Virus record (IMG/VR): IMGVR_UViG_3300045988_173917
Location: 1-56,938 of that record
Direction: 5' to 3' (one strand)
DNA length: 56,938 nt
Source: a virus
Below the pieces are notes generated by a model that searched no databases, was not told the DNA's origin, and saw only the letters and a list, made by a program, of their open reading frames with translations. Positions 3,508 to 56,938 of the stretch are shown here, in pieces. Every line of letters starts with the position of its first letter. The stretch's first letter is position 1. The position numbers and the translations under genes were made by a program.

Positions 3508-3578
3508 GGTCGGTTGTCCGAGTGGTCAGGAGCCAGTCCGCAAAACTGGGTACGCGGGTTCGAATCCCGCACCGACCT
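3508..3578 (+). tRNA. tRNA-Cys(GCA), phage-encoded, with atypical C at position 33
   Basis: Acceptor GGTCGGT/ACCGACC. 3-bp D stem with a 13:22 mismatch. Anticodon arm CCAGT-CCGCAAA-ACTGG. T arm GCGGG-TTCGAAT-CCCGC. Discriminator U, which is a Cys identity element. Confidence 0.75.
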
Positions 3579-4171: not shown

Positions 4172-4244
4172 GCCTACTTAGCTCAGTTGGTAGAGCATCG
4201 GTTTTGTACTCCGAAGGTCATCCGTTCGAACCGGATAGTAGGCT
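4172..4244 (+). tRNA. tRNA-Thr(UGU), phage-encoded
   Basis: Cloverleaf: GCCTACT/AGTAGGC acceptor. GCTC-AGTTGGTA-GAGC D arm. TCGGT-TTTGTAC-TCCGA anticodon arm (31:39 is U:U). ATCCG-TTCGAAC-CGGAT T arm. Total 73 nt. Confidence 0.85.
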
Positions 4245-5669: not shown

Positions 5670-6061
5670 TAGAACTACAAGCTATAGGTAACATCGGCAA
5701 GGATGCCGAGCAGAAAACAATAGGCGGCAAGTCATACGCCTCATTTTCAATCGGTGTAACAGAAAAAACATCAGACGGGAAAGACAAGACAACATGGCTC
5801 CGGGTAATGAAATACGACAGCGAAGGTAAGTTGACCGCATACCTTACAAAAGGGAAAAAGGTTTGGGTACGTGGCAATCCCTACTTTTCTGCTTATGTCA
5901 GTAAAAACACAGGTGAAGCCATCCCGGACACGACTATATGGGCTGACAAACTCGTGTTCTGTTCTTCAGGAGAAAAGCAGAATGGACAGCAAGACACCGG
6001 ACGGCAACCGCAAGAACAGCAAACAACGGATAACTATTACGACGATCAACTTCCTTTTTAA
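5666..6061 (+). CDS. ssb: Single-stranded DNA-binding protein
   Basis: OB-fold-like N-terminus (LQAIGNIGKDAEQKTIGGKSYASFSIGV...TTWLRV). Q/G-rich linker. Acidic C-terminal tip DDQLPF, typical of SSB. Confidence 0.85.
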   Translation: MIELQAIGNIGKDAEQKTIGGKSYASFSIGVTEKTSDGKDKTTWLRVMKYDSEGKLTAYLTKGKKVWVRGNPYFSAYVSKNTGEAIPDTTIWADKLVFCSSGEKQNGQQDTGRQPQEQQTTDNYYDDQLPF

Positions 6062-10901: not shown

Positions 10902-10969
10902 CCTGCTCCTGTTCTACTTAGCCGTGGTGCGGGGAACTAAAACAAATTTCTATCTAATAAAGAATCAGC

Positions 10970-11152
10970 ATGAAAAATAACTACACAGAAGAACAAAAAG
11001 AAAAGGTATGCGATTTAGTTTATAAATGGATGGTTGAGAATAATTGTCATTCGGCAGAACATGCATCGCAGGATGACGATTGTACGATCAATGCCATCGA
11101 CTTAGTATGTGAATTAGCTGAAATAGTTGGAATACCTTACGATGAAGATTAA
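10970..11152 (+). CDS. Hypothetical protein
   Basis: 60-aa acidic ORF in the early operon. Confidence 0.45.
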   Translation: MKNNYTEEQKEKVCDLVYKWMVENNCHSAEHASQDDDCTINAIDLVCELAEIVGIPYDED

Positions 11153-25027: not shown

Positions 25028-25561
25028 TTATTGTTTTTTAGAATTGTTACTACCAGATGCCTTTTCGGAAGACTTAAAGAAATCAGCCATCATTGCTTTC
25101 AGTTCACTCAACTCTTGTCTTAGGGCTTTATTCTCTGCATCCTGACGTTGGCGCTCTGCAAATTCCGGATTAAGAATTTGAAGCATCTTGTCGCAAGACT
25201 CCAGAACTGAACGGTGATGGTCTACGCTGCCTAATATCTCCGATGAACGGTTTCTCATTGCAGCAACTTCCGCGTTCATAGATTCCCGTGAACCGGATAT
25301 CACCATATTCCCACCACCGGGAAAGTTCGCATCAGCAATGTCTGACATTGCCGGTATTTTCTGGAAAGTGACAGTCTGCTCCCCGACCTTGATTGTTATG
25401 TCGACCACCATTCTCGGAGGTTGTCCATAAGGAATAGGTTGTTGCATAAACTCCGGTACGGGATTGGAAACCCCGGTTACGGAACCGACTTCAATATATG
25501 GAGTGCCGTCCTTATGAAGGACAAAGAACTCGCTGTTTATTCTTAAATTCTGAAAAGGCAT
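25028..25561 (-). CDS. Hypothetical protein
   Basis: 177-aa ORF with a C-terminal coiled coil. Confidence 0.55.
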   Translation of the reverse strand: MPFQNLRINSEFFVLHKDGTPYIEVGSVTGVSNPVPEFMQQPIPYGQPPRMVVDITIKVGEQTVTFQKIPAMSDIADANFPGGGNMVISGSRESMNAEVAAMRNRSSEILGSVDHHRSVLESCDKMLQILNPEFAERQRQDAENKALRQELSELKAMMADFFKSSEKASGSNNSKKQ

Positions 25562-30954: not shown

Positions 30955-33900
30955 TTAGTAATTCCCTCCTATGAAATTTGATGTCCAATATGATCCACTC
31001 CAAATTAAAACTTGCATCGCCCCTTTTTTAATAACATCTGAATTTGTTGTCGTATCTGCCTCTACCCTTATTGTCCCGCGCAATGTTATATTTCCCGTTC
31101 CACATTTCCGGATCCAATACATTTTACCTTTTTTTGCAGCAGGCCTGTTACTTGGTAAAGTTATTGTTATATCAGATGATGCAGTGGTTATTATTATATC
31201 ATCTTTATTTGTTAATGTAGTCGAGGAACTAACGACCCTTACGTTTAATCCAAATCCATTGATTATAGAATCGTTGATCATTCTGATATGGCCGTTTTCA
31301 ATGTCCAGGGCGATGTTTTTACCCACATCACTATAGACTTCCGGGCATCCTGTTGCTTTTACATAAATGCCAATATTATCTGTAACATCAGTATTTGATT
31401 TTATTTCATTATTTTCAAATCTTGCACATCCTCTTAAAGCAGTAGTAGGGGCTGGTATACTGGCGCCAATTGCAGCAAGGTAACGACCTGATCTGAATTT
31501 CATAAAATTATTGTATAATGAAAGACCATTGTAAGACATATTACTGTCAGCAACGCCAATCATGTTACTCCCTATTTTAAATCCTCCAATTATACCGCTA
31601 GTCGCTGTAATTTTTCCTGTAAACTCTCCGTTAACTGCAATAAGTTTTCCATCTGTTGTAATCTGAACATTCCCGTTTGCACTAATAGCTCCATTAAGAT
31701 TAATCCTACTTGCATCAATTGTAACGCCTCCTCCGCCAACATTAATAGATTCAATAACTTCTTGCCCTAATGCATTTTTATTTGAAGAAAAAATTGTAAC
31801 GAAATTACTTTGTGTTACAACACCAGATATTTCTTGGGTACCATTTATAATTTTAGATACTGTAGAAGAAATTTGGTTGTAACTAACTTGTAAATTGCTA
31901 ATATCTGATTTTATTAATTGATCATTTGCATTATAGACATCTAGAGATACTTTATTTTCGATCAATCCTTTTGTTATATTTATTTCAGCATTAAGTTCTT
32001 CCTTTGTTGCATTCGTAAGAACAGGCCTGATTACCGAAGCACTAGGAGCAACAGATGACCCATCTAGAGCCGTATAACGACTATCGTGTACTACTGCTAC
32101 ACAATTGTTCCCGATTTTAAATATGTACCTACCACCTCCACGAAGATAAATAAGTTCTTCGCTGCTACTGGCTAGTTGCCCAATACTGCCGGCAGGGAGT
32201 ATATATTGCACTGGGGTAGTATCGGGTATTTCCTTGGTAAATTTACATTCGAAAATCTCAATTATTCTATTAATAACATTTGCCCCCCATCCACTCCCGT
32301 TACTACGCCATACACAGTTCATTGAAAAACCTAATTCATGCGTTGACCATTTTGGTATTCCAAAATCACTATTAAGTGGCGAAACAACTTCTATCCTTGT
32401 TTCTGAGTTTGATAATTTAATAGTTACCGGATAATATGTGTCCTGATCCCACTTTTCAGCCCTTAAGTCGATATCTGTTTCACGATATGTTTGAATAGTT
32501 GTGTATTCTTTTGCTTCATCAATTGCCTCTTGTTTAGCCTCTTCCACTCTCTCAGAAACTTCGTTAACCCTTAAACTTATTTCTCCGTTTTCGGCTTTAA
32601 TTTCGGTCAGGGTTTTCGTTATCGTTTTTATTTCTGCTTGCTGCTCGGAGAAAGAAGGAGTCCATACGGAAGCAGGCAGAAAACCTTCGACTAGCATTAC
32701 TTCGGTGAACCGGACCGAATTCCCTTCGGTATGCGCGGCTTCTCCGGCGTAACAAAGTAAATACCCTTCCTGAGCTTCAAAATCGCTTCTGGTAATTATA
32801 ATACCACCGTTTTTGTCATAAAGGTGATGGTAAGTAGTTGTTAGATAAGATTTAATAGATTTATCAAATAAAATGAAATCACACTTGCTAATATTGCCTG
32901 ATAAGAATTCTATATTTTGGGCATTCACATAATAAACTGTATTCGGCTTGATTACAGGCATATACAGAGCTTTATATGCATAATCATTTGTTTCTCCTTC
33001 AACCGTAAACGGCCCTTTTGTACCATCCGCCAAATTAACGTTATTAGCTCCGATCTGGTCTTCTGCTGCTACTGGAAAGCCTTGCAGGGGTTTATTGCCT
33101 TCGATTAGGGAGATGTTGTAAATTTTTGGATTATTAAATGATCCGATATAAAAACAAATTTTTTCAACCGTTTTGCCTAATGTTGATACTAAATCTATTC
33201 TTCCAAAACTTATGCTTAATCCGTGAATACTTCTGCTTCCATCTGTATAGTAAAAGAATATATCTCCACTTCTTGCCACAGATTTCGATTCAATACTAAT
33301 TACATATTGTGTGTTTGTCTTGTATTTTATTTTATTCTCAAAAATATCAACATATTGACCATTATAAGTACCGGTTGCAATACCAGATGATGTCATTAGT
33401 GCTAAATCCCATATCAAGTACACCCCGTCTTCATCCTGCCCCCAGACCGCAATATTCTTGTTCTTCTCATTCCACTTCAACATCATTTTTTTGGATATAA
33501 GGTTCTGGGAACCGATCTGTATCCCATCCACAACCTTTCCCGCTTCATCTATTGCAATCTGCTTCTGATCGTTTATGGAGGGGGTCCACAATAGCGAAGT
33601 TTTATTGCCTAATACTAGTTTTACCCACTCTATTTCAGATTCAACGGATACACTATTAGGCATTGGATATATCCGAATAAATGTATTATCAATAGCAGGC
33701 GTTAACGTCCATTTAAAAGTTTTCAAAGCAATATAATCTGTATCGGGACCACCAGGATAAAAACTAGCCAATACAACATTCCCTCCAGAATTGTAAACAG
33801 CCCAGTTTGTTTTATTCGCCCCTAATTTGCCTTTAATAACAATTGTACATTCTTCTCCCTGCTTAGGTTTGTAGTCTCCTAAGTAAATGGTCGCTATTGG

Positions 33901-53840: not shown

Positions 53841-53984
53841 AATAAAGGAATTTGCCTGCTTAGGGTTTAGGTGCCTGAGCATATGTTAATCTAAAAACTT
53901 ATGTCAGGCAGTTTGTTAGCATAAGTTTTTGAGGCATAAAAATAATTTATTTTACCTTTATTGGTGTATTTTCTTCCAATTTTA

Positions 53985-53992
53985 TATATTTG
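53985..53992 (+). promoter_or_regulatory. Bacteroides-type -7 promoter box TATATTTG upstream of RNA unit A
   Basis: Matches TAnnTTTG. An aTTG lies 21 nt upstream. The box ends 5 nt before the unit A stem. Confidence 0.45.
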
Positions 53993-53996
53993 TGGT

Positions 53997-54080
53997 GTCC
54001 ACTGTAACCGGAATTGAAATTTGTTTTTTAAGAGGTAAAGTGTCCCTTTTAAAAATTTTAATTGAACCGTAACAGTGGAC
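53997..54080 (+). ncRNA. Structured RNA unit A (long closing stem + GGAATTGAAAT motif)
   Basis: GTCCACTGTAAC (53997-54008) pairs with GTAACAGTGGAC (54069-54080) with 1 mismatch. GGAATTGAAAT lies at 54010-54020. The inner helices CGG:CCG and AATT:AATT are conserved. A T-rich tract follows. Confidence 0.6.
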
Positions 54081-54120
54081 ATTTTTATTTCAACACTACT
54101 TACAATTCCAAATAATAATG

Positions 54121-54128
54121 TATATTTG
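54121..54128 (+). promoter_or_regulatory. Second TATATTTG -7 box, upstream of RNA unit B
   Basis: The same octamer occurs 1 nt before the unit B stem. Confidence 0.4.
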
Positions 54129-54129
54129 T

Positions 54130-54205
54130 AATCCCTTCTGCATTGGAATTGAAATATGTATGTGGCTGTTTTATTATGCCTTGAATTGTACCAGCAGAAG
54201 GGATT
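54130..54205 (+). ncRNA. Structured RNA unit B
   Basis: AATCCCTTCTGC (54130-54141) pairs perfectly with GCAGAAGGGATT (54194-54205). GGAATTGAAAT lies at 54145-54155. Inner helices TGG:CCA and AATT:AATT. A T-run follows. Confidence 0.6.
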
Positions 54206-54211
54206 TTTAAA

Positions 54212-54293
54212 AGAACATTACTGTAATGGAATTGAAATATATATAGGGTTGATTGCCTTTAATTGTCTTAAATCGAACCAACAGTAATGTTCT
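54212..54293 (+). ncRNA. Structured RNA unit C
   Basis: AGAACATTACTGT (54212-54224) pairs perfectly with ACAGTAATGTTCT (54281-54293). GGAATTGAAAT lies at 54228-54238. Inner TGG:CCA helix. TCTG and T9 follow. Confidence 0.6.
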
Positions 54294-54317
54294 TCTGTTT
54301 TTTTTAAATTTAAAACG

Positions 54318-54608
54318 ATGGTAACTGAAGAAAAAATTGTCGACCTGTTAGGGGATTATGTTTCATGTATATCCCTAACCGAAGAACAGAAAGAATTAAC
54401 ACCTGAACAGAAAGAGTTTTATCAGGCTGCGGATGTTTGCCTTGAAATCCTGAAAAGGACAAGGTTAATATCCGGAATAGTAATAAAGCGGCCGGATGAA
54501 TTTAAAGAGGCATGGGAAGAAGATAAGCCTGAGTTTGATTTTATGTCTAAATACGCTATTTCTACCTGCGAAATAGCTGATGAAGTCATGAAAAAAATCC
54601 GGGAATGA
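54318..54608 (+). CDS. Hypothetical acidic helical protein, translationally coupled to the Cas6-like gene
   Basis: 96 aa, with an ATGA stop/start overlap at 54605-54608. Confidence 0.55.
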   Translation: MVTEEKIVDLLGDYVSCISLTEEQKELTPEQKEFYQAADVCLEILKRTRLISGIVIKRPDEFKEAWEEDKPEFDFMSKYAISTCEIADEVMKKIRE

Positions 54609-55366
54609 GAATAAAAGTAATCCTAAATGCTGATCCCGGAGATTTTATTGATATTAATTATCAATATAGCTTAGCAGCCTGGATTTATCGCGTTATGGAT
54701 AAATCGAATTCGGGATCGGCAGAATTTTGGCATAATTCCGGGTTATCATTTTCTGAAACAGACAATCGGCGTTATAAATTTTTTACATTTTCTAATCTGT
54801 ATATTCCGAAGTTCAGGCTGGAAGGAAGGAGAATGTATATTTTGTCGGATTATATTTCATTTATTTTCTCTACATATATAGATGAAATTGGATGTGATTT
54901 TATCGGGGGATTATCTGAAAACCCCGGATTTTATGTTGGTAAATATCTTAAAGTAAAAGAAATACAGGTATTAAGAGAAGATGATATTAAATCAGGCGTA
55001 ATACTAAAGGCCAAATCTCCTATTTACGTTCAGTCGGATAGTCTGCATTTAAATCCGATAGAACATAAAGATATTTACTCTGCTGCAATACACAAAAATT
55101 TAGCTTCTAAATATAACGTATTTTATAAGTCTGACCGCCACGATTTTATTCAGACCTCTGTAACGATTGTGTCTGGAATTAGACAAAAACTGATTACTAT
55201 AAAAGAAGGGAAGGATTCAGAGACTAAAATTAAAGGATTTCTCTATACATTTAAAGTCGAAGGTGATCCGGACCTGATCGAAATAGGTTATAAATGCGGA
55301 TTTGGGCAAGGGAATGCGATGGGGTTCGGTTTTGTCGATGTGATAGAACAAAAGGATGGAATATAA
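54605..55366 (+). CDS. cas6: Cas6-family CRISPR-type endoribonuclease (orphan; no other cas genes in the window)
   Basis: MRIKVIL...IDINYQYSLAAWIYRVM N-terminus and YKFFTFSNLY. The C-terminal G-rich loop IGYKCGFGQGNAMGFGFVDV closely parallels the Pyrococcus Cas6 VGYEVGFGEKNSLGFGMVKV as I recall it. Length is 253 aa. Confidence 0.85.
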   Translation: MRIKVILNADPGDFIDINYQYSLAAWIYRVMDKSNSGSAEFWHNSGLSFSETDNRRYKFFTFSNLYIPKFRLEGRRMYILSDYISFIFSTYIDEIGCDFIGGLSENPGFYVGKYLKVKEIQVLREDDIKSGVILKAKSPIYVQSDSLHLNPIEHKDIYSAAIHKNLASKYNVFYKSDRHDFIQTSVTIVSGIRQKLITIKEGKDSETKIKGFLYTFKVEGDPDLIEIGYKCGFGQGNAMGFGFVDVIEQKDGI

Positions 55367-55395
55367 TTCTATAGATAGTTAAAAAAGGACCGGGA

Positions 55396-56652
55396 CTATT
55401 CCCCGGTCTTTTCATACAATACATAGTCTATTACTTTTCTATTTGCTTCGTCTACTTGTGTGTAGTCATATTCACGGTATTTCTCAATCATTAATCCAGT
55501 AACTGAATGCATTAATCCTTTGTCTATTGTGGAATCCGGTATTCTTAATTGTCCTGCAATTGTTGCCCATGAATGTCTGGCATAGGTAAAACTAAAATGA
55601 GGGATTTTATCTTTTTCATTTTTAATATTCCTATTCATTTCTTCTATGTCCGATTTTATCCTGTCATCGATAAAGTGTGTTAGCTGTTTGTGGTTTTTGT
55701 ATTTAGTTTTAATCATTCTTATTTTATTTGGATCAGCATACTTTTTAATTATTTCTAATATTTCAGGTTGCAATTTTAACTTTAGACGTACCTCTCTTGC
55801 TGTACGTGCTGTTTTTAGACGACTAATATCTATATAATTTTCAAAGTAAGGTAAATAGAAAATATCCTTCATATTCATTCCACATAGAAAGAAGGATAAA
55901 AAGAAGAAATCACGTCCAATCCCAGGGCGTTGATAGAATTTTCGTAAGACTTCTATGTCAAGTTTTCTTATCTTTGCTTTATAATCCGATGGAATTGAAA
56001 TGGCATCAAATGGGTAAAGATCCCGGCTTATTACCTTTTGTCCAATTGCCACCTTAAAAACTCTTCGGATACAACGGAGATATTTTGTAAACGACACTTC
56101 TTTCTTATTTGTTCCTTTAAGAAAGAATTTTTTTAATTCTATAAGAGTATAGCTATCTATGTTCTGAAAGTAAATTTTATCAGTTTTAAAGAACTTTATT
56201 AATAAATTTTTGGTCCATCTGAATGTATCTGCGTAAGCCTTTCTTTTCATTTCTTCAGTAACCTCTTCGGATTCAAGGTCAAATATAATTTTATCAATGG
56301 TTCTTATAAAATCTGTTGATTGTTCGACTGGTTTCCCTAAATTCAATCTTATTCTGTCATAAGACATGAAAATTTGTTTTAAGGTCATGACTGACATATC
56401 CTTAACGGATTCTCCCAATTCTTTATAATAATCCTGATATCTGCCTTTTTGAGCAAATAAATCTGAGTTCCATTTCGCTGCCTCTGGAAATTCTTTCTTT
56501 ATAATTCCATTCCCCTGATCAAAAAAACTGGGCTCAATATAGTAGTTAGTCGGAATAAAAGTAGGATTTTTCCCTTTTTTCTTAATCTTAATTTTAATGT
56601 TTCCTTTTCCTGTCTTTCCTGAAACATCCCTTAGCACGACACTTAATTCCAT
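55396..56652 (-). CDS. int: Tyrosine recombinase / phage integrase
   Basis: 418 aa. FTYARHSWAT (HxxR region) and a C-terminal H...Y region (LMHSVTGLMIEKYREYDY). Adjacent to attR and the tRNA. Confidence 0.88.
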   Translation of the reverse strand: MELSVVLRDVSGKTGKGNIKIKIKKKGKNPTFIPTNYYIEPSFFDQGNGIIKKEFPEAAKWNSDLFAQKGRYQDYYKELGESVKDMSVMTLKQIFMSYDRIRLNLGKPVEQSTDFIRTIDKIIFDLESEEVTEEMKRKAYADTFRWTKNLLIKFFKTDKIYFQNIDSYTLIELKKFFLKGTNKKEVSFTKYLRCIRRVFKVAIGQKVISRDLYPFDAISIPSDYKAKIRKLDIEVLRKFYQRPGIGRDFFFLSFFLCGMNMKDIFYLPYFENYIDISRLKTARTAREVRLKLKLQPEILEIIKKYADPNKIRMIKTKYKNHKQLTHFIDDRIKSDIEEMNRNIKNEKDKIPHFSFTYARHSWATIAGQLRIPDSTIDKGLMHSVTGLMIEKYREYDYTQVDEANRKVIDYVLYEKTGE

Positions 56653-56772: not shown

Positions 56773-56881
56773 AATAACCCCTTTTTTAGCACAAAAGTGT
56801 GTTTTTTGTTACTTTTTACTTCGGATGTAAGGAACAAAAAAAGGAGTCAGATTATATCTAACTCCTTGATTTTCAATTTGT

Positions 56882-56938
56882 ACCCAGGGCGGGAATCGAA
56901 CCCGCACGTCTGTTGAGGACACTGGATTTTGAGTCCAG
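56882..56938 (-). tRNA. 3' part of tRNA-Leu(CAA) (attR); the gene probably continues beyond the window edge
   Basis: Identical to 1-55, plus acceptor nt and discriminator (..CCTGGGTA on the minus strand). The 5' half would lie at coordinates above 56938. Confidence 0.8.

Follow-up and report, generated by a model that had tools for sequence, protein, structure and literature searches.

The window analysed in this work (positions 1 to 56,938 of IMG/VR virus record IMGVR_UViG_3300045988_173917) belongs to a prophage whose end carries an integrase gene and a tRNA. Three tandem hairpin units (unit A, 53997-54080; unit B, 54130-54205; unit C, 54211-54294; all on the plus strand) are followed by ORF96 (54318-54608, plus strand), encoding an acidic 96-aa protein, and by a cas6 gene of the Cas6b type (54605-55366, plus strand; 253 aa), an orphan located beside the integrase gene, with neither a cas operon nor an adjoining array. 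The hairpin units, ORF96 and cas6 were all found where the original prediction had placed them, and the stop of ORF96 overlaps the start of cas6 by 4 nt (ATGA), in line with the translational coupling it proposed. A GC-rich hairpin with T-runs on both strands (55386-55412) separates cas6 (plus strand) from the integrase gene (minus strand), and is likely a bidirectional terminator. The same locus is present on more than 11 IMG/VR contigs.

The locus lies outside any CRISPR-Cas locus. As had been claimed, no other cas gene was detected in the window by tblastn with the Cas proteins of a complete type I-B locus (L284), and there was no CRISPR array: TRF found nothing in 53900-54320, and two or more direct full repeats with spacers, as in an array or mini-array, were absent from the locus. 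An Rfam search of the window returned tRNAs only.

The box TATATTTG, described beforehand as a Bacteroidetes-type -7 promoter box, precedes unit A (53985-53992, plus strand) and unit B (54121-54128, plus strand), where it would act as a promoter. The TAnnTTTG box also recurs upstream of unit clusters in independent loci (8-11 nt before the first arm), but was not enriched across the window (64 found vs. 66.7 expected), and the weight of the motif lies only in that recurrent position. A sigma-70/terminator scanner run on the window was uninformative for Bacteroidetes. The strand of the units was assigned from the promoter boxes, the T-runs and the sense of the repeat; counts of G.U vs. A.C pairs were dropped as a strand test, because the scan used to gather units accepted G.U and stopped at A.C, which biased them.

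The Cas6 identity of the 253-aa protein was supported by all profile and structural comparisons: Pfam (PF01881, 4e-22; PF21350, 4e-12), TIGR01877 (109.2 bits vs. a cutoff of 58.65), PADLOC Cas6b (PDLC01782, 1.2e-53, residues 1-247), and an AF2 model (pLDDT 90.3) which matched 5yi6 (E 1e-20) and 3i4h/3pkm (TM 0.79-0.88) in Foldseek. The model shows a double ferredoxin/RRM fold and a C-terminal glycine-rich loop, with the glycine-rich motif GFGQGNAMGFGF at residues 232-243. Y19/Y21/Y28, H43 and K58 are invariant across the phage and chromosomal homologues, and the candidate catalytic Tyr/His/Lys align with the corresponding region of Pfu Cas6. By profile and predicted fold, the phage protein is a type I-B Cas6b in which the putative catalytic Tyr/His/Lys are conserved. 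Its identity to the host-type Cas6 of L284 is 31.7%, and its clade shares 28-36% identity with chromosomal Cas6 proteins and 41-64% within itself. The identical protein is WP_118108131.1, named for Odoribacter splanchnicus/Bacteroidales, and was found on 391 contigs. The retained candidate catalytic residues, together with the cognate-looking substrates alongside, suggest an enzymatic role rather than a dominant-negative one.

ORF96 (pI 4.6) is 67-75% identical where the accompanying Cas6 is only 41-44% identical. No match was found in Pfam, PHROG, NCBIfam, PADLOC or PDB, and the AF2 model was poor (pLDDT 51), too weak for a fold search. Two candidate assignments were discarded: a relative of the small ORF encoded in host type I-B loci (similarity was absent), and a CasPR.

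Units A, B and C each fold into a long hairpin (MFE z-scores of -5.8, -3.2 and -4.2 respectively, with none of 200 shuffles as good), with outer stems of 12-14 bp and T-runs 3' of each unit. Unit A comprises a 5' arm (53997-54008), a bulged C54009, a first box (box1, GGAATTGAAAT, 54010-54020), a loop (54021-54059), a second box (box2, AATTGAACC, 54060-54068) and a 3' arm (54069-54080) followed by a T-rich tract; its outer stem consists of 9+2 bp flanking an A.A mismatch. The corresponding elements are located at 54130-54141, 54145-54155, 54156-54183, 54184-54192 (box2, AATTGTACC) and 54194-54205 in unit B, which is followed by a T-run, and at 54211-54224, 54228-54238, 54239-54270, 54271-54279 (box2, AATCGAACC) and 54281-54294 in unit C, which is followed by T8 at 54299-54306. 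The second box, 3' of each loop (AATTGAACC, AATTGTACC and AATCGAACC), had been overlooked in the original prediction. The predicted Cas6 cut (GGA/ATTGAAAT) falls within box1, the first A of ATTGAAAT being A54013, A54148 and A54231 in units A, B and C respectively. The box1 string GGAATTGAAAT occurs exactly four times in the window, three of them in the units; the fourth (55991) was considered as a further unit element and treated as a chance occurrence, since it falls within the integrase gene and only one other locus (L007) shares it.

The sequence common to the three units is limited to the 11-nt and 9-nt boxes, and the outer stems are unrelated to each other but complementary within each unit, as originally described; folding and pairing statistics confirmed this description. 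In the unit alignment, 92.7% of paired cells were complementary vs. 73.5% in shuffles (0/500 as high), both-sided changes were found at 8 of 14 pairs, slid-register controls were only 15-43% paired, and arms from non-cognate units paired over 0.76 bp on average. Pairs were counted on one alignment (A5); the MAFFT alignment of all 19 units (A4) was unusable for this purpose because junction lengths shift the register. These pairing statistics are partly selected, because units were gathered by a scan that demanded complementary arms, an effect mitigated by two controls: 12 chance matches to the box pattern in IMG/VR had stems of only 1-7 bp, and a covariance model trained on distant loci only recovered all three window units with E values of about 2e-5 (unit A, 53999-54078, 2.5e-5; unit B, 54135-54200, 1.8e-5; unit C, 54218-54287, 1.5e-5). 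The CGG:CCG/TGG:CCA covariation reported beforehand proved to be real: among phages 98-100% identical, 54008 C>T was accompanied by a compensating 54069 G>A.

Most unit loops in the loci gathered are short (16-22 nt) and carry apical hairpins, and those of the window measure 28-39 nt. Loops are better conserved than arms between orthologous units. The loop of unit A, or guide, lies partly within an apical hairpin kept by compensatory changes. Such a partial sequestration is unusual for a guide; the chromosomal RNA of L298 described below also has a hairpin, 3' of position ~14.

The two boxes correspond to the 3' (box1) and 5' (box2) halves of host-type I-B repeats, and both are present in every unit. 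The canonical Bacteroidales I-B repeat reads N5-AATYGNAC(C/T)-N5-(G/A)GAATTGAAA(T/C), that is, box2-N5-box1, an order also seen in the Prevotella I-B repeat (PMC6784885). In the units the order is the opposite, box1-loop-box2 between complementary arms, with the two halves 28-39 nt apart and no contiguous repeat. Each unit is therefore a circularly permuted repeat, consisting of a 3' half, a guide-like loop and a 5' half, in which the covarying outer stem stands in for the 5-nt linker. Position 1 of box1 and position 9 of box2 covary between G:C and A:U in canonical repeats, and the same covariation was seen in one unit (L012, 5272-5208). The presence of both repeat halves in every unit supports, at the level of sequence, the proposal that units A-C are Cas6 substrates yielding crRNA-like RNAs with a AUUGAAAU tag.

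The permuted design, together with the orphan cas6, is kept in diverged phage loci (Cas6 41-64% identical), and despite this divergence neither the 8-nt handle nor the two boxes have departed from the host repeat sequence. One Cas6-less viral family also has a unit, and in Phaeodactylibacter chromosomal type I loci (L178 and L181) show the same architecture beside an additional cas6. Alignment-based scans of IMG/VR and JGI metagenomes added few further diverged loci, and no relatives of the locus were found among 50,697 GenBank phage records.

Three complete type I-B loci (L160, L284 and L298) carry repeats matching the unit boxes, and all the cognate loci found were type I-B; the type III option raised beforehand is not supported for unit A. 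This I-B system targets the phage. An array with the same repeat as L298 (L252) has two spacers that are 100% identical to the window (10934-10970 and 25179-25214) and also carries cas6-derived sequence; a spacer of L298 itself matches 29 of 31 nt of the window (32497-32527).

Positions 54011-54041 of the window (plus strand), spanning the 5'-handle region and guide nucleotides 1-21 of unit A, are identical (31/31 nt) to the minus strand of L298 (10927-10897), where the counterpart is a CreR/CreA-like RNA encoded between cas6 and cas8b. The guide is 21/21 identical to the psi-spacer of this RNA (TTGTTTTTTAAGAGGTAAAGT, 54021-54041 in the window, plus strand). The same guide matches L298 at 11095-11082 with a TCA PAM and 12 pairing positions, positions 6 and 12 being the sole mismatches; of 300 shuffled guides, one reached a comparable site. 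This site is in the promoter of the operon formed by a small ORF and cas8b, 15 nt upstream of a -7 box (11110-11117) and 48 nt from the ATG of the small ORF. The same psi-spacer/promoter logic was found in L284 and L160: the RNA guides of the three loci match the adjacent promoter with a YCA PAM, those of L298 and L284 being mismatched at positions 6 and 12, and a conserved small ORF of 69-74 aa between cas6 and cas8b directly follows the targeted promoter in all three. A CreA-like regulatory guide had been one of the options considered beforehand, and for unit A it is the option that these matches support; a loop identical to the guide of a host regulator argues against unit A acting only as a decoy. 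The loop of another unit (L018c) is also identical to the L160 guide at 14 of 17 positions.

The loop search suggested beforehand succeeded for unit A but not for units B and C. Across ~1.3 Mb of host-type loci, neither host counterparts nor targets of units B and C were found. When 21-24 loops were compared by prefix and seed with I-B loci, with the window and with other loci (L298 excluded), matches stayed at background level, and one 15-nt hit, between the L281c loop and sequence upstream of a gene in L180/L192, was dropped, as it looked like shared promoter sequence. Protospacers of loops A and C in the 50,697 GenBank phage records reached chance level only (E at least 0.3), and there were none for unit loops in the gathered loci.

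We consider it reasonably probable that the locus is a prophage anti-CRISPR module made from CRISPR parts, the unit RNAs being loaded in the host type I-B Cascade and unit A silencing the host effector genes. Unit A would most likely be a viral "Cracr"-type RNA, steering the host Cascade to silence the host's own genes. It copies the guide by which the host would throttle its own CRISPR genes, and the locus therefore most likely lowers host immunity.

From the arrangement of these elements we infer transcription, Cas6 cleavage, Cascade loading and repression, as well as why the phage carries a Cas6 and what ORF96 does, along the following lines. Each unit would be a self-contained crRNA-like RNA (crlRNA) derived from one permuted type I-B repeat. 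Transcription would begin in the 5' arm, cross the 3' half of the repeat (GGAATTGAAAT, with the Cas6 cut site and the 8-nt handle AUUGAAAU), a short guide and the 5' half of the repeat (AATYGNACC), and end in the 3' arm paired with the 5' arm, the stem and the T-run acting as terminator. As the arm-arm stem replaces the 5-nt linker of the repeat, the two repeat halves would be juxtaposed as in a normal repeat, and one cut by Cas6 (the phage's own, possibly the host's too) would give a handle-guide-3' handle product able to enter the host type I-B Cascade. The guide of unit A, with its 12-14-nt PAM-proximal match, would bring Cascade to the -33 region of the promoter, where it would bind without cleavage. 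This promoter would drive the small ORF and cas8b-cas7-cas5-cas3-cas4-cas1-cas2, so that guide over-supply may silence the effector genes and compete with antiviral crRNAs, protecting a phage targeted by spacers of that very I-B system. For units B and C the presumed role is that of guides matched to other host variants or promoters, and ORF96 is possibly a cooperating Acr.

Against this explanation stand the partial sequestration of the unit A guide noted above, the finding of a host counterpart for unit A only, and the linear form of the host RNA (psi-repeat plus guide), which host Cas6 can process, whereas the phage uses a permuted format and its own Cas6. A more tentative extension, to which we give well under an even chance, is that repeat permutation is a general and overlooked route to a one-cut, self-terminating mini-crRNA, with the phage Cas6b lineage and ORF96 specialised for the split-repeat topology and loading the products into the host Cascade. 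If true, the phage would have its own biogenesis arm for reprogramming host immunity, and the Phaeodactylibacter loci would make the permuted unit a native regulatory format, beyond a viral trick.

Among the alternatives, an unlikely one, though the best placed of them, is that the targeted promoter mainly controls a toxin, the 69-74-aa small ORF, within a CRISPR-guarding addiction module; unit A would mimic the antitoxin (a CreA-type Cracr) and keep the toxin silent while another factor, such as ORF96 as an Acr, disables interference. The promoter lies directly before the small ORF in the three host loci, CreTA modules adjoining Cas effector genes have been described for type I-B, as have viral Cracrs that pair CreT suppression with a co-encoded Acr (bioRxiv 10.1101/2024.10.29.618823), and ORF96 is small, acidic and more conserved than Cas6. 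However, toxin features were not detectable in the small ORF, which seems to share the orientation of cas8b and to be contiguous with it, so that its promoter probably drives the effector genes too (CreR-like), and neither the searches nor the model of ORF96 gave a function.

Slightly less likely still is that the units are pure decoys, soaking up Cas6, Cas5 and Cas7 in dead-end complexes, with loops that matter only by their structure. Racrs are known to be processed by Cas6f and to form aberrant complexes (PMC10651486), several units have their own promoter boxes, suggesting a dosage effect, and the prevalence of short loops with apical hairpins, as well as the lack of targets for B, C and most other loops, would fit. 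Decoys indifferent to sequence would not be expected to show the 21-nt identity of unit A to a host regulator guide or the similarity of the L018c loop to the L160 guide, nor loops more conserved than arms in orthologous units.

Inter-virus competition or superinfection exclusion, in which the units would be minimal arrays and the loops true spacers against rival phages or plasmids, appears very improbable: viral mini-arrays with such a role are known (PMC11656645) and the window loops approach spacer length, but protospacers did not exceed chance in the GenBank phage records and were absent from the gathered loci, the loops are structured (and short in most relatives), and the match of unit A to the host promoter is only partial, indicating a non-cleaving design. 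We give as little credence to a self-contained phage system, in which Cas6 would process its own sRNAs for phage gene regulation or RNA stability without host CRISPR-Cas and the likeness to repeats would be ancestry only, since, old and divergent as the phage Cas6 clade is and constantly as units accompany it, the handle and boxes remain identical to host repeats, the guide of unit A equals that of a host RNA, the host I-B system targets the phage, and a Cas6-less viral family also has a unit.

The favoured explanation, a Cascade-directed anti-CRISPR module, would widen the range of RNA anti-CRISPRs hijacking the autoregulation of host Cas genes so as to include Bacteroidota, in a prophage common in the human gut, and predicts how Odoribacter phages keep lysogeny in hosts with matching spacers. 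An orphan viral cas6 would also gain a concrete and testable role, lying as it does beside its expected substrates. Should the permuted substrate be accepted by Cas6, the units would be useful in multiplexed type I tools as compact guide cassettes that need a single cut and include their own terminator and end protection.

The original prediction knew of no described system with this architecture; viral crlRNAs (Cracrs) and orphan viral cas genes had already been described. A previous work covers the CreR/CreA RNAs of hosts and the Cracr RNAs of viruses, among them cases with short spacers, arrays and co-encoded Acrs (bioRxiv 10.1101/2024.10.29.618823). Like the units, viral Cracrs are virus-encoded outside CRISPR-Cas loci, with repeat-derived handles and several per virus, and often adjoin protein Acrs; their short guide copies the host CreR/CreA psi-spacer, with a PAM-proximal match to the cas/creT promoter, and unit A fits this description, including the at least 9 PAM-proximal matches to such a promoter. 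In contrast, the Cracrs described, which BLAST searches with CreA/CreR queries recovered from Pseudomonadota, Bacillota and Actinomycetota, have the linear psi-repeat-spacer-psi-repeat layout of a mini-array, whereas in the units the repeat is split, permuted and stem-clamped, leaving no more than half a repeat on either side of the guide. Here the host belongs to Bacteroidota and the phage brings a Cas6. Of the host RNAs (L298, L284 and L160), that of L298 has the same handle and guide as unit A, but these RNAs are chromosomal and linear (a full psi-repeat, a guide, and a degenerate second repeat or terminator) and lack the outer stem.

Racrs are solitary repeat units (Camara-Wilpert et al. 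2023, PMC10651486) and, as the units appear to be, phage small RNAs that mimic host repeats; they have promoters of their own, undergo processing by Cas6 and disturb Cascade function. A Racr is a whole solitary repeat without a target-matching guide and acts by sequestration, whereas the units hold no contiguous repeat but only its halves, swapped, and at least unit A has a guide with a defined host promoter target. The split, permuted and stem-clamped topology would escape repeat-similarity searches for solitary repeats or mini-arrays.

Cas6 enzymes of the Pfu type recognise the repeat by its 5' part and cleave it 8 nt before the 3' end. Pfu-type Cas6 (PDB 3PKM), on which the phage Cas6 model superposes, has two separated recognition elements that correspond to box2 and box1; in the units they are in reverse order and would be brought together by a helix. 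Orphan viral cas genes are known as anti-CRISPRs (AcrIB3/Cas5-like, AcrIB4/Cas8b-like and AcrVIA2/Cas3-like; Katz et al., bioRxiv 10.1101/2023.06.24.545427), each a lone cas homologue in a phage accessory region, as here, and Table S3 of the same work already contains the cas6 from this family of phages (IMGVR_UViG_3300030320_000339; host predicted as Odoribacter). That listing is bioinformatic only, with no viral Cas6 characterised and no associated RNA noted, whereas in the window this cas6 lies beside the three permuted repeat units.

The region at 53985-55366 carried three hairpin units (A, 53997-54080; B, 54130-54205; C, 54211-54294), then ORF96, a 96-aa ORF (54318-54608) whose stop overlapped the ATG of a 253-aa ORF (54605-55366). 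The units folded far better than shuffles (z-scores -5.8, -3.2 and -4.2 for A, B and C respectively). The 253-aa protein was a Cas6, as originally predicted, and profile searches and structure comparison agreed on this: it matched Pfam PF01881 and PF21350, TIGR01877 (109 bits, cutoff 58.65), PADLOC Cas6b (1e-53, full length) and the PDB profiles 5yi6 (1e-27) and 3pkm (2e-19), and its AF2 model (pLDDT 90.3) gave Foldseek TM scores of 0.76-0.88 against Cas6 structures. Tyr19/21/28, His43 and Lys58 were invariant. The identical protein was encoded on 391 contigs and is deposited as WP_118108131.1, named for Odoribacter splanchnicus / Bacteroidales. ORF96 was acidic and more conserved than Cas6, and it matched nothing in Pfam, PHROG, NCBIfam, PADLOC or the PDB. 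No further cas gene or CRISPR array was found in the window, again as predicted. The region is the accessory end of the prophage, since downstream of cas6 come a tyrosine integrase gene and a truncated tRNA. This tRNA (56881-56938, minus strand), which adjoins the integrase gene and is cut by the window end, is likely the attachment site; two complete tRNA genes lay near the left end (3508-3578 and 4172-4244, plus strand). The cas6 of this phage family was already catalogued as an orphan viral cas gene, without an RNA partner (Katz et al., Table S3; bioRxiv 10.1101/2023.06.24.545427).

The units were present as first described, but a second conserved box had been overlooked. Box1 was GGAATTGAAAT in every unit, and box2, located 3' of the loop, was AATTGAACC in A, AATTGTACC in B and AATCGAACC in C. 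The canonical 30-nt Bacteroidales type I-B repeat is N5-AATYGNAC(C/T)-N5-(G/A)GAATTGAAA(T/C), with GGTTTAATCGTACCTTTATGGAATTGAAAT as a Prevotella example (PMC6784885); repeats of this type occurred on viral contigs (GTTTTAATTGTACCATTATGGAATTGAAAT, CTTTTAATCGAACCATAGAGGAATTGAAAT), and another (CTATTAATTGAACCATAGTAGAATTGAAAT) adjoined a complete cas6-cas8b-cas7-cas5-cas3-cas4-cas1 operon of an uncultured Odoribacter. Each unit ran arm, repeat 3' half, loop, repeat 5' half, complementary arm; because this box order is swapped with respect to the canonical repeat, the unit amounts to a single repeat that has been circularly permuted; judging from the sequence, the arm-arm helix takes the place of the 5-nt linker. 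A fourth exact GGAATTGAAAT (55991-56001, plus strand), inside the minus-strand integrase gene, is probably due to chance, since it lacked box2 and arms and was common only to the window and one comparison locus (L007).

Cas6 homologues of 41-64% identity were encoded in the same small-ORF and cas6 operon, flanked by two to five units (L012, L015, L016, L018, L019, L251, L281 and L282). In most of these diverged loci the units lay on the strand opposite to cas6, in the order promoter box, unit, unit, T-run. The boxes were constant among units, and the arms were unrelated in sequence (27% identity) yet complementary. Pairing statistics, partly selected because the unit scan demanded complementary arms, were 159 Watson-Crick and 8 G.U of 169 arm positions, against a mean of 0.76 bp for non-cognate arm combinations; when nine units were aligned in perfect register, 92.7% of cells were paired (73.5 +/- 2.5% in shuffles, 0/500 as high; 15-43% in slid registers) and both sides had changed in 8 of 14 pairs. 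Two controls were run: 12 unrelated IMG/VR sequences that fitted the two-box pattern had stems of 1-7 bp only, and a covariance model trained on the distant loci alone recovered all three window units (36-37 bits, E ~2e-5, 1.4 Mb). In one unit, box1 position 1 and box2 position 9 formed A:U in place of G:C, a switch also seen among canonical repeats. Among phages 98-100% identical, unit A showed a compensatory C:G>U:A change, and its apical hairpin also carried compensated changes. The covarying stem of the original prediction was thus borne out by both diverged and near-identical relatives.

Other forms of the unit and of cas6 were observed. In two Phaeodactylibacter MAGs, chromosomal permuted units (L178 5420-5500 and L181 ~5795-5875; 11-12-bp compensated stems) lay between a second type I locus (cas6-cas3-cas8-cas7) and an extra cas6 accompanied by two uncharacterised ORFs; the 5' 16 nt of their loops were conserved (ATGTTYGTAATTWTTC) and the 3' parts diverged, a seed-like pattern, and no loop targets were found within those loci. 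One IMG/VR contig family carried a single unit with a 10-bp stem (L081 10522-10593, with a -7 box upstream; L118; L135 9992-10059); over the stretch fetched, these contigs encoded neither Cas6 nor ORF96 homologues. Host Cas6 may also be enough for such RNAs to function. Locus L019 (2790-2610, minus strand) held three box1-loop-box2 modules, only the middle one with its own stem, and L281 (1890-2130, plus strand) two box1 copies and one box2 inside one outer stem; there may be a gradation between the permuted format and linear mini-arrays whose long linkers are complementary to one another. A 399-aa protein (L283 2443-3642), encoded on an element that shares its integrase gene pair with L016, had Pfam hits to LPD29, to the Cas6 C-terminal domain and, faintly, to DnaJ; the 1.5 kb upstream of it showed no unit. 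In the Odoribacteraceae Butyricimonas, Gabonibacter and Sanguibacteroides (L174, L180, L192), cas8b did not follow the best Cas6 relative; the stretch downstream of cas6 (~10770) reads like a structured-RNA gene in L174 and like coding sequence in the other two, and these cas6 genes may be solitary or at an operon end.

Host-type I-B arrays with a matching repeat were found, carrying spacers against this prophage, which bears on the earlier question of a host CRISPR connection. The 1284-bp gut metagenome contig L252 was an I-B array over its whole length (repeat CTTTTAATTGAACTAAGGTAGAATTGAAAC), and two of its spacers matched window 10934-10970 and 25179-25214 at 100% identity; one ~385-nt “spacer” read as the 5' region of the phage cas6 in reverse complement (54597-54981) and probably arose when the assembly was joined across two spacers derived from cas6. 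The same repeat occurred in a complete locus, L298 (= L299 = L300), one spacer of which matched window 32497-32527 at 29/31 positions.

Between cas6 and cas8b of L298, on the opposite strand, lay a crRNA-like RNA (crlRNA) gene. It comprised, in order, a full-length degenerate repeat (TTTTAATTGACCTAAAT-AGAATTGAAAT), the sequence TTGTTTTTTAAGAGGTAAAGT... and a terminator hairpin. Window 54011-54041 (handle and first 21 nt of the unit A loop) was identical to this crlRNA over 31 nt. On its own strand, ~170 nt upstream, this guide matched a site (L298 11095-11082, PAM TCA) at positions 1-5, 7-11 and 13-14, with mismatches exactly at 6 and 12, the positions left unread in type I R-loops; of 300 shuffled guides, only 1 reached a comparable site when the whole locus was considered. 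The site lay 15 nt upstream of a TATATTTG -7 box (11110-11117), followed by a 74-aa ORF (ATG 11143) and cas8b-cas7-cas5-cas3-cas4-cas1-cas2. Two other complete I-B loci, L284 and L160, showed the same arrangement with other guides (PAMs TCA and CCA); in L284 14 pairing positions matched, with mismatches again at 6 and 12, and the loop of a phage unit (L018c) was identical to the L160 guide at 14/17 positions. Among the fetched loci, units B and C had no counterpart or target; the loop comparison suggested earlier gave a match for unit A but not for B and C.

The conserved acidic 69-74-aa ORF between cas6 and cas8b (L298 11143-11367, L284 11025-11237, L160 11113-11322, all plus strand) sat directly behind the promoter targeted by the host crlRNA and could be a CreT-like toxin; no similarity to phage ORF96 was found. 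A second mini-array-like element (L298 11437-11520, plus strand), between the small ORF and cas8b, consisted of ATAGAATTGAAAT, a 35-nt spacer (AACCCGCCGATGTCCATCGGGATACCGTAGGTACT) and a degenerate repeat (TATTTTAATTGACCTAAGTAGATTTTT); no partial target of the spacer was found within the locus.

Cleavage by type I-B Cas6b falls 8 nt before the end of the repeat, leaving AUUGAAAC as the tag, with U as its last base in one C. thermocellum locus (PMC3479195). With such a cut, a single cleavage at GGA/AUUGAAAU would yield handle, loop and 3' half, and we infer that the units are transcribed, cleaved, loaded and used for repression. According to a review, viruses had apparently not made broad use of Cas proteins as inhibitors, in contrast to repeat RNAs. 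The phage's own Cas6 might serve permuted-topology specificity, dosage or delivery to Cascade.

CreR/CreA are crRNA-like RNAs of cas loci that, being only partly complementary to a cas or toxin promoter, direct the effector to bind it without cleavage; Cracrs are viral copies exploiting this circuit, with short spacers, often arrayed to cover host variants and often found with protein Acrs, and were reported for V-A, I-F, I-E, I-C and I-B systems in three other phyla (bioRxiv 10.1101/2024.10.29.618823). The crlRNAs of the host-type loci fit the CreR/CreA description, and unit A is best read as a viral Cracr-type copy directed against the very I-B system by which this phage is targeted, which supports the original prediction and sharpens its CreA-like guide option into a hijack for this unit. 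Relative to these known regulators, the permuted, stem-clamped repeat format, the co-encoded Cas6b with apparently intact catalytic residues and the occurrence in Bacteroidota are new.
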